Assembly (NCBI GenBank): GCA_024304995.1
Contig: JAMWZD010000001.1
Location: 385,472 to 449,471 of the forward strand
Direction: 5' to 3'
Length of the DNA stretch: 64,000 bases
Source: Rickettsiales bacterium
GTDB taxonomy: Bacteria > Pseudomonadota > Alphaproteobacteria > Rickettsiales > UBA998
Positions 62,666 to 64,000 of this stretch are shown in pieces. Within the stretch, counting starts at the first letter, position 1. The number at the start of each line of letters is the position of its first letter. The notes beneath the pieces are model-generated. The model was not told the DNA's origin, made no database searches, and saw only the letters and a program-made list of their open reading frames with translations. Both the position numbers and the translations under genes were made by a program.

Positions 62666-63631
62666 ATGCGTACACGTCCTAAAATTGCCTTGATTGGCGC
62701 TGGTATGATTGGTGGAACTTTGGCACATCTGGCTGCTTTGAAAGAGCTGGGTGATGTGATTTTGTTTGATATTGCAGAAGATATGCCGCAGGGCAAAGCG
62801 CTGGATTTGAACCAGTCCAACGCGGTGGATGGCGCAGATGCAGTCATCATGGGAACAAATGATTATGCAGATATTGCTGGGGCAGATGTGTGCATTGTGA
62901 CTGCGGGCGTACCGCGCAAACCTGGCATGAGCCGTGATGACTTGATTGAGATTAATACAAAGGTGATTACGTCTGTTGCGCACGGCATTAAAGAACATGC
63001 GCCGAATGCGTTTGTGATTGTGATTACCAACCCGCTGGACGCGATGGTCTGGGTGATGCGTGAACAAACTGGATTTGACCATAAAAAAGTCTGCGGTATG
63101 GCAGGCGTGCTGGATTCGTCTCGTTTTACATACTTCCTTGCAGAAGAACTGGGCGTGTCCATTAAAGACATTACCACGTTCGTGCTAGGCGGACATGGGG
63201 ACACGATGGTTCCTGTCGTGCAATATTCCGCAGTGGCAGGCATCCCGCTTCCAGAACTCATCAAAATGGGCTGGTTAGACCAAGAAACTCTGGATGAAAT
63301 GGTGCAGCGCACGCGCATGGGCGGCGGTGAGATTGTGAAATTGCTGAAAACGGGCTCGGCATATTATGCACCCGCGGCTTCGGCAATTACGATGGCAGAA
63401 AGCTACCTCAAAGACCAAAAACGCATCCTTCCTTGCGCGGCATATCTGACAGGGGAATATGACATTGATGATTTATATGTCGGCGTTCCTGCGGTCATCG
63501 GTGGTGCTGGCGTGGAAAAAGTGGTGGAAATTAATCTGGACGCTGAAGCACAAAAACAGTTTGATGCCTCTGTTCAGGCAGTGCGTGATTTAGTGGCAAG
63601 CATTGATTTGGAGAAAGTTGTGGCTGCTTAA
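62666..63631 (+). CDS. mdh: Malate dehydrogenase (LDH-like MDH)
   Basis: [17 protein letters not shown]...[16 protein letters not shown]...GGHGDTMVP motifs. 321 aa. Confidence 0.95.
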
Positions 63632-63654
63632 AACAAATAGACCTAATTAACTGT

Positions 63655-63690
63655 AACGGTTTGTGAATTTATTTTCACAAACCGTTTTAT
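63655..63690 (+). terminator. Rho-independent terminator of mdh
   Basis: Perfect 13-bp stem aacggtttgtgaa/ttcacaaaccgtt (63655-63686), loop tttatt, then ttat. Confidence 0.7.
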
Positions 63691-63696
63691 AGAACT

Positions 63697-64000
63697 ATGA
63701 ATGAAAAACCGTTTGCATTTGTATTGATGCCATTTGCTCAAAAGTATAATGATATTTATAAACTTGGAATAAAGGAAGCCGCAAAGCAAACTGGTTTTCA
63801 TGCTGAGCGTGTAGATGAGCAAATTTACACTGAAAACATGCTTGATCGAATCTACAATCAAATTGATGCCTCTGATGTAATCATTGCAGATATGTCTGAA
63901 AGAAATCCTAATGTATTTTATGAGTTAGGTTATGCTGACGCAAAAAATAAAACTTGTATTCTGTTGACCTCCGAAAGCAAAGATATACCCTTTGACTTAC
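63697..64000 (+). CDS. TIR-like / nucleoside 2-deoxyribosyltransferase-like domain protein, 5' part only (runs off the window)
   Basis: Not in the ORF track because there is no stop. ATG 63697 gives MNEKPFAFVLMPFAQKYNDIYKLGIKEAAKQTGFHAERVDEQIYTENMLDRIYNQIDASDVIIADMSERNPNVFYELGYADAKNKTCILLTSESKDIPFDL, the FV.MPF...I...I..aD.vIADlS..NPNV.YELGyA pattern of this fold. AT-rich. Confidence 0.55.
   Translation, partial: MNEKPFAFVLMPFAQKYNDIYKLGIKEAAKQTGFHAERVDEQIYTENMLDRIYNQIDASDVIIADMSERNPNVFYELGYADAKNKTCILLTSESKDIPFDL

Follow-up and report, generated by a model that had tools for sequence, protein, structure and literature searches.

A horizontally acquired two-domain gene between mdh and sucC in a Rickettsiales bacterium, a possible single-gene defence system of a large unnamed family

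In a 64,000-nt window (the whole stretch of DNA analysed) from the Rickettsiales bacterium GCA_024304995.1 (contig JAMWZD010000001.1, positions 385,472-449,471 of the forward strand), the malate dehydrogenase gene mdh is followed by an AT-rich open reading frame (ORF) that is a foreign, horizontally acquired gene. It encodes a protein of 282 aa which, judging from its sequence, belongs to a very large, unnamed and uncharacterised family whose N-terminal domain falls into the superfamily of nucleoside 2'-deoxyribosyltransferases (NDT) and TIR domains. With a probability put at even, this protein would abort infections on its own as an N-glycosidase or NADase; its architecture recalls the DUF4062 proteins of the Swarozyc and Evangelion systems, although it is not itself a member of DUF4062. 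This reading draws on analogy with TIR, Cap12/Pycsar TIR, NDT-like retron-Eco1 and DUF4062 (Swarozyc/Evangelion) effectors. In addition, the cassette that carries the gene appears to have been exchanged recently between two related bacterial lineages.

The upstream flank of the cassette is native and consists of mdh itself (62666-63631, + strand, 321 aa; Ldh_1_N 7.8e-40, Ldh_1_C 2.1e-34). The ORF starts with an ATG at 63697 on the same strand and runs off the window, with the first 101 of its 282 codons visible (63697-64000); an earlier note on this DNA had placed both genes correctly. Searching for exact copies of the mdh protein gave two identical public Logan contigs, L001 and L002, and L001 is identical to the last 6000 bases of the window before it continues for another 2.7 kb. 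The full ORF (window-equivalent 63697-64545, L001 6680-7528) stops after 282 codons, and sucC, preceded by a good Shine-Dalgarno sequence, follows 86 nt downstream, with sucD behind it. As the ORF is complete at 282 aa and sucC-sucD come next, there are no partner genes and no extra domains, and the larger system with unseen partner domains that the earlier note had envisaged gives way to a protein ending in a beta-sandwich. The cassette between mdh and sucC measures 1.0 kb and comprises a hairpin-bearing spacer, one 282-aa gene and the 86-nt spacer.

The base composition changes at the cassette border. From 63632 onward GC falls to ~28-35%, against ~47-50% in mdh, sucC and sucD, and the ORF has a GC of 0.35 and a GC at third codon positions (GC3) of 0.29, compared with a GC of 0.495 in mdh and 0.47 in sucC and a GC3 of ~0.45-0.48 in the neighbouring genes. 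Between the mdh stop and the ORF start lies a stem-loop (63655-63686, + strand) with a perfect stem of 12-13 bp, which begins 23 bases past the stop codon and folds as RNA with a dG of -20.5 kcal/mol (z = -5.96), a value equalled in none of 200 shuffles. The strong terminator claimed for mdh in the earlier note thus stands as far as the hairpin is concerned, but the U-tract behind it is weak (only ~4 U after the stem) and a simple consensus terminator scan did not call it.

The 101-residue fragment carries the motifs FAFVLMPF and ASDVIIADMSERNPNVFYELGYA, in agreement with the TIR-like and NDT-like signatures noticed earlier. It matches Pfam PF05014 (Nuc_deoxyrib_tr; E 2.4e-7, 31.3 bits at a cut-off of 28.8) and the PADLOC model 'Effector TIR' PDLC00733 (E 2.6e-10). 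With the full-length protein the PF05014 match scores 29.1 bits (cut-off 28.8), borderline like that of the fragment, and PDLC00733 is matched at 4.6e-10 over model positions 274-353, which is ~80 of its 388 positions; no NCBIfam model matches the protein. An AlphaFold2 model built on a 42-sequence family alignment (pLDDT 87) predicts three parts: a Rossmann-like alpha/beta domain spanning residues 1-110, then a helix of 25 residues (113-137) and finally an all-beta sandwich (140-279). In Foldseek searches the N-domain resembled nucleoside 2'-deoxyribosyltransferases (TM score ~0.6) and, among viral models, both a CMP/hydroxymethyl-CMP (hmCMP) hydrolase (24% identity, root-mean-square deviation 3.4) and a Cap12/Pycsar TIR-domain protein (probability 1.0, 21% identity). 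The C-domain resembled Ig-like sandwiches, namely the TMEM106B lumenal domain, ApaG, the KirBac cytoplasmic domain and DUF4352. When the family profile was aligned with PDB sequences, E76 (in NVFYELGYA) fell on the catalytic Glu, the nucleophile in the beta4-alpha motif, of DNPH1 (GVGYELGRA) and of an NDT (GVAFELGYA), in alignments that are marginal (E ~1.5-2.4) and serve solely for motif registration. E76 is invariant in all 42 aligned family members and is one of 58 invariant positions, which also include the motifs RVDEQ, IADM, NxNVxYExG and DIPFDLxHxRH. Taken by sequence motif and predicted fold, the N-domain appears to be a Rossmann-like domain of the NDT/TIR superfamily that retains the catalytic glutamate E76.

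A word-indexed search of a large protein collection returned 2970 relatives, the best non-self match being 56% identical. Nearly all of them are ~283 aa long and align end to end with the 282-aa protein, and their hosts are Proteobacteria without close kinship (Syntrophobacteraceae, Alteromonadaceae, Gallionellaceae, Paraburkholderia and Nitrosomonas). A HMMER scan of 1.84 billion representative proteins found 16114 clusters at E<=1e-3; among the best 150 matches about one third were full-length, and the others shared only residues ~3-140, at 50-60% identity. The two domains are conserved to very different degrees, as the median identity of 113 similar-length representatives to the protein of the window is 60% over the N-domain against 22% over the C-domain, and N-domain identity is unchanged whether the C-domain is recognisable or not. 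Transitive BLAST nevertheless connects most C-termini of family members to one another, indicating diverged forms of one domain rather than unrelated domains. Plasmids carry fusions of the same N-domain to TPR or 'TRAFs-binding' proteins, and the N-domain is also found in temperate phages of Staphylococcus and Streptococcus. Immune proteins of the sensor-effector kind usually combine a conserved enzymatic head with a diversifying tail.

Within a comparison set of 80 other alphaproteobacterial mdh loci from species-representative genomes, in which the canonical order mdh-sucC-sucD-sucA dominates, none encodes a relative of the 282-aa protein. The earlier note had considered that sucCD might be found downstream as part of a conserved arrangement; the two genes are indeed adjacent, but the gene in front of them is missing from those 80 loci. 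This distribution bears on the possibility that the protein is an ordinary housekeeping nucleoside 2-deoxyribosyltransferase for nucleoside salvage, a reading already disfavoured and highly improbable. A PF05014 match just over the cut-off, the conserved catalytic Glu and the name 'nucleoside 2-deoxyribosyltransferase' that JGI annotation gives to homologues would fit such an enzyme, whereas the absence from related mdh loci, a nearest homologue only 56% identical and from unrelated taxa, the low GC3 relative to the neighbours, the lack of any NCBIfam match and the homologues in prophage and integrase contexts do not. The fold and the catalytic-Glu motif xVxYExG are shared with classical NDT and DNPH1 (PF05014), yet classical NDT is a single-domain protein of ~140-170 aa and a vertically conserved salvage enzyme. 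The 282-aa protein, in contrast, has a beta-sandwich of about 145 aa fused to the core, Asn instead of Asp six residues before the Glu and the family-specific invariant motifs RVDEQ and DIPFDLxHxRH. As it is two-domain, mobile and sporadically distributed, it is not a classical NDT, nor the ordinary one that the earlier note had allowed for.

The mdh-suc cluster as a whole readily accommodates additional genes. Across 66 alphaproteobacterial loci, 46 of 166 cluster spacers are at least 500 bp long and hold mutually unrelated ORFs, among them glycosyltransferases, methyltransferases and a Sel1 protein, which indicates that the cluster tolerates insertions in general, with no particular leaning towards conflict genes. 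The nearest outgroup, the Rickettsiales metagenome-assembled genome L003 (mdh 78% identical), carries a different ORF of 174 aa in its mdh-sucC spacer and has no sucA downstream of sucD. That ORF (~10960-11538) has a low GC and resembles Effector-associated domain 8 at a level below the threshold (E 0.009), and a further ORF of 106 aa lies between sucC and sucD of the same genome.

The recent history of the cassette can be read from a sister lineage. The 90% cluster of the 282-aa protein contains a second sequence, P0121, whose contigs from three independent assemblies (L175, L176 and L177), together with the scaffold L178, represent a related lineage, here termed B as opposed to lineage A of the window. 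Lineage B has the same local gene order with the cassette at the same site. The core genes have diverged considerably between A and B, with DNA identities of 84.7% for mdh (synonymous divergence, dS, 1.23), 76% for APH, 78% for Trm112, 83.5% for sucC and 86.2% for sucD. The cassette gene is 98.1% identical, with 15 synonymous and 1 nonsynonymous changes (dS 0.09, omega ~0.016), and both cassette spacers are ~99% identical. The left breakpoint of the exchanged segment lies at 63600-63631, where identity rises from ~84% inside mdh to ~98-100% at the mdh stop, and identity drops again ~100-250 nt into sucC. The hairpin at 63655-63686 lies inside the ~99%-identical tract and thus travels with the cassette. 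As the gene and its spacers are nearly identical while the flanks have diverged, the pattern cannot be explained by selection on the protein. These comparisons point to a recent movement of the cassette between two species-level-diverged lineages through recombination in the flanking 3' end of mdh and 5' end of sucC, and the ratio of substitutions indicates that the cassette gene is probably maintained under purifying selection. An apparent empty site in lineage B, where sucC follows 178 bp past mdh in L178, turned out to be a scaffold gap of 100 N, the missing piece being L177 from the same sample; no presence/absence polymorphism is therefore claimed.

Other positions near the cassette also differ between the two lineages. 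Lineage B has an orphan ORF of 546 aa inserted between tRNA-Gly and mdh (L175 4760-6400), and a Peptidase_M48 gene (L175 3299-4054) where the window has an ORF of 208 aa (61510-62136). Several slots within 7 kb thus differ between A and B, and together with the large spacers in other Alphaproteobacteria this bears out the suggestion of the earlier note that the suc region is prone to insertion.

In eight genomic loci of homologues the gene is solitary and its neighbours are not conserved. It adjoins an integrase in Nitrosomonas marina, is flanked by two integrases in Paraburkholderia, occupies the margin of an integrative element in L092, adjoins a small TIR_2 gene in L093 and is found among housekeeping genes in L085-L088. 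IMG/VR yielded 254 matches, 11 of them full-length, and the 134 neighbours of these 11 homologues include integrases, portals, terminases and capsid proteins, which identifies the 11 contigs as real prophages. Among these neighbours there are, in addition, a TIR-TM protein, an ATPase of the OLD/AriA/GajA-like kind and a UG29 reverse transcriptase. In L102 (6318-7352, - strand, and 9004-10530, + strand) the genes on either side of a family member encode a TIR-TM defence protein (PADLOC 5e-62) and a pentapeptide-repeat protein of 509 aa. In three lambda-like prophages (L096, L098 and L100) the 283-aa family gene adjoins the gene for the terminase large subunit and/or the portal. This is an unusual position for a moron, and it is suggestive because Swarozyc is triggered by a portal protein.

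Such carriage could alternatively mean that the gene is a phage-derived moron serving the phage or mobile element, either as a nucleotide-pool enzyme (a dNMP/hmCMP-type hydrolase for modified DNA) or as an enzyme that counters defence by destroying the signalling nucleotides of immunity, in which case the copy studied here would be a leftover. The eleven full-length prophage homologues, some of them between terminase large subunit and portal, and the Foldseek match to a viral CMP/hydroxymethyl-CMP hydrolase are in line with this, and phage nucleotide metabolism is known to involve NDT-like enzymes (PMC12884076). The gene stands alone, however, without nearby phage genes here and in several other genomes, and it is under purifying selection and has spread recently between two bacterial lineages inside a core operon. 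A diversifying C-domain on a conserved enzyme core is moreover the usual pattern of a sensor and not of a metabolic enzyme. A moron is regarded as unlikely, at perhaps one chance in five.

Somewhat less likely still is a toxic effector that serves a different kind of conflict, for example a toxin-like or addiction module or a trans-regulated orphan effector, which would have spread through selfish retention and not through phage defence. By sequence, a CBASS TIR effector model is the nearest to the N-domain, the cassette has spread between lineages faster than its flanks, and some homologues adjoin an antitoxin-like gene or a methyltransferase, all of which would suit such an element. Against it, in the 8 genomic and 11 prophage contexts neither an antitoxin nor a cyclase or sensor gene recurs as a conserved neighbour, the protein lacks a secretion signal and a delivery domain, and the architecture is self-contained. 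A small conserved upstream partner ORF was also considered and rejected, as the ORFs of 94-96 aa in L083 and L089 are unrelated.

The reading as a single-gene abortive-infection protein rests mainly on comparison with known systems. Three preprints of 2026 describe DUF4062, another branch of the TIR/NDT superfamily, as forming single-gene defence systems with TIR-like NADase activity, Swarozyc and Evangelion (among them bioRxiv 10.64898/2026.05.01.722283 and 10.64898/2026.06.25.731849). In Swarozyc an autoinhibited TIR-like NADase core is carried by a helical stalk, and binding of a phage portal by the C-terminal auxiliary region (AUX) leads to NAD+ hydrolysis and aborted infection; in Evangelion both the DUF4062 core, which is conserved, and the divergent AUX region are essential. 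Like these systems, the 282-aa protein is encoded by a solo gene and combines, according to the AlphaFold2 model, a catalytic-Glu core with a helical linker and a variable C-terminal region. Its family also shows a patchy distribution driven by horizontal gene transfer, on prophages, plasmids and islands, and a genuine DUF4062 gene lies 10 kb upstream in the window. The C-terminus is distinct, being predicted as a compact Ig-like beta-sandwich as opposed to the helical/winged-helix AUX of KpSwz. As the protein has no match even at E<=10 to PF13271, the DUF4062 core with its E-Y and Q/W/E motifs, and an hhalign comparison with the window's own DUF4062 protein gave a non-significant probability of 1.8%, it is not a member of DUF4062.

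Cap12/Pycsar TIR effectors, whose expected chemistry is NAD+ cleavage, provide the best match at the sequence level (PDLC00733, 4.6e-10) as well as a Foldseek match. Unlike in CBASS or Pycsar, no cyclase (CD-NTase, PycC) and no sensor of the SAVED, STING or CARF type is present in the protein, its neighbours or the neighbours of its homologues, and no ThsA (SIR2/Macro-SLOG) as in Thoeris is found next to the gene here or in the sampled homologue loci. Lacking a cyclase, ThsA and a nucleotide sensor, the protein is not a component of CBASS, Pycsar or Thoeris. The effector of retron Ec86 (Retron-Eco1) contains an NDT-like domain and acts as a nucleotide-depleting anti-phage effector. With this protein, which depletes adenine-containing nucleotides, the 282-aa protein shares an NDT-superfamily domain, but there is no reverse transcriptase/msDNA locus nearby, the second domain is different and no detectable sequence similarity extends beyond the superfamily motif. 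By analogy, the 282-aa protein would work like the DUF4062 systems, and it shares a superfamily with DUF4062, the TIR proteins of CBASS, Pycsar and Thoeris, and NDT proteins.

In such a mechanism the beta-sandwich would sense a phage product via the helical stalk, and the helix might mediate dimerisation or oligomerisation. Sensing would either lift autoinhibition or drive oligomerisation of the N-domain, upon which E76 would catalyse the breakage of the N-glycosidic bond in NAD+ or some other adenine or deoxynucleotide, leaving the infected cell starved. The position of the gene inside a highly expressed tricarboxylic acid (TCA) cycle operon could provide constitutive expression through read-through. 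A broader version, held more tentatively and with somewhat less than an even chance of being right, sees the family as a sister architecture to DUF4062/Swarozyc on the NDT/Cap12 branch, in which a structural protein of the phage would be recognised by the diversifying Ig-like domain, and which, as a promoterless cassette, would parasitise highly expressed core operons and sweep between related species by flanking homology.

Several observations weigh against a defence function. Known defence genes are present in only a minority of the sampled contexts, prophage carriage fits a phage-benefiting function as well, and a literature search found no paper describing the family. Candidate substrates also include dNMPs, CMP and nucleosides, all of which are used by enzymes of the NDT superfamily. 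The estimate of selection between lineages A and B is based on only 16 substitutions. The copy of the window, finally, is the most divergent of the 42 aligned members, departing from the consensus at 17 of the 117 columns that are at least 90% conserved (median ~2), and its changes include H81D and K102L near conserved motifs. This last point could indicate that the gene is a passenger in decay, without a present function, in a reduced, AT-drifting genome. Such decay is improbable, at little more than the level of the housekeeping enzyme, as the ORF is uninterrupted and as long as is normal for the family, none of the 58 invariant residues, E76 among them, has been lost, and 15 synonymous changes stand against 1 nonsynonymous change between the lineages.

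If the 282-aa protein does prove to be an abortive-infection protein, it would represent a large and easily testable class of one-gene systems with thousands of members and an N-domain in more than 16,000 representative clusters. NAD or nucleotide-depletion immunity would then extend from TIR, SIR2 and DUF4062 to the NDT/Cap12 branch, with a compact 282-aa model for a beta-sandwich sensor gating an N-glycosidase, and the cassette swap would bear on the ways in which immunity is gained and passed around among reduced, symbiont-like genomes. If it does not, this is an ordinary orphan gene acquired by horizontal transfer. The proposal is not surprising in kind, yet it can be tested directly, and the recent exchange inside a core metabolic operon gives it added value. 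The locus itself is a clean natural example of an accessory gene in a central-metabolism operon that was recently swapped between diverged lineages by homologous recombination.

The surrounding region contains a further candidate. The DUF4062 gene (52928-54103, - strand; Pfam E 1.4e-28; GC 0.33), with a likely start at the ATG of MDKKYQIF giving 351 aa, encodes a TIR-like NADase core followed by an auxiliary region of ~260 aa. PADLOC v2.0.0 (2023) has no model for this protein, and the gene is a candidate for a single-gene defence system of the Swarozyc/Evangelion type. A 12-kb stretch around the TCA genes thus holds two independent candidates of the TIR/NDT superfamily, which accords with the picture drawn in the earlier note of a horizontally acquired, AT-rich NDT/TIR-like gene behind mdh and a second superfamily member beside sucA.

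The gene sucA (2-oxoglutarate dehydrogenase E1; 54122-57004, + strand) is detached from sucCD and sucB. As noticed before, it lies between the DUF4062 gene and an IS200-type Y1 transposase gene (57103-57615, + strand; E 1.5e-38), the latter directly behind it in place of sucB. It is located 5.7 kb upstream of mdh, the sister lineage, like L003, lacks sucA after sucD, and tblastn found no sucB (E2o) or lpdA homologue in the 64-kb window. The displacement of sucA and the absence of sucB from the window reflect rearrangement and not simple insertion. The earlier view of a cluster broken up by AT-rich inserts therefore applies to the 1.0-kb cassette that splits mdh from sucC-sucD, but not to the placement of sucA and sucB.

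Downstream of the transposase gene lies an AT-rich ORF of 603 aa (57788-59599, + strand; GC 0.35) with sub-threshold pentapeptide-repeat matches only. Its protein is 52.7% identical between lineages A and B, compared with 98% for the mdh protein, and the ORF thus evolves very fast; a tie to the 509-aa pentapeptide protein of L102 was rejected, as the two show no similarity. A tRNA-Gly(GCC) gene (62474-62548, + strand) precedes mdh. A dispersed repeat of 25-27 nt with the pattern GTCATTCTGA..GAAG..GAAGAATC occurs as 25-nt copies at 57020-57044 (+ strand), between sucA and the transposase gene, and at 28014-28038 (- strand). Its copies differ by indels, such that a fixed-length pattern finds none and a gapped pattern finds these 2. 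A variant (L001 9692-9718) lies just past sucD outside the window, where both public contigs end 42 nt behind the gene. The repeat may be similar to repetitive extragenic palindromic (REP) elements and linked to the Y1 transposase and to the rearrangement of sucA and sucCD.

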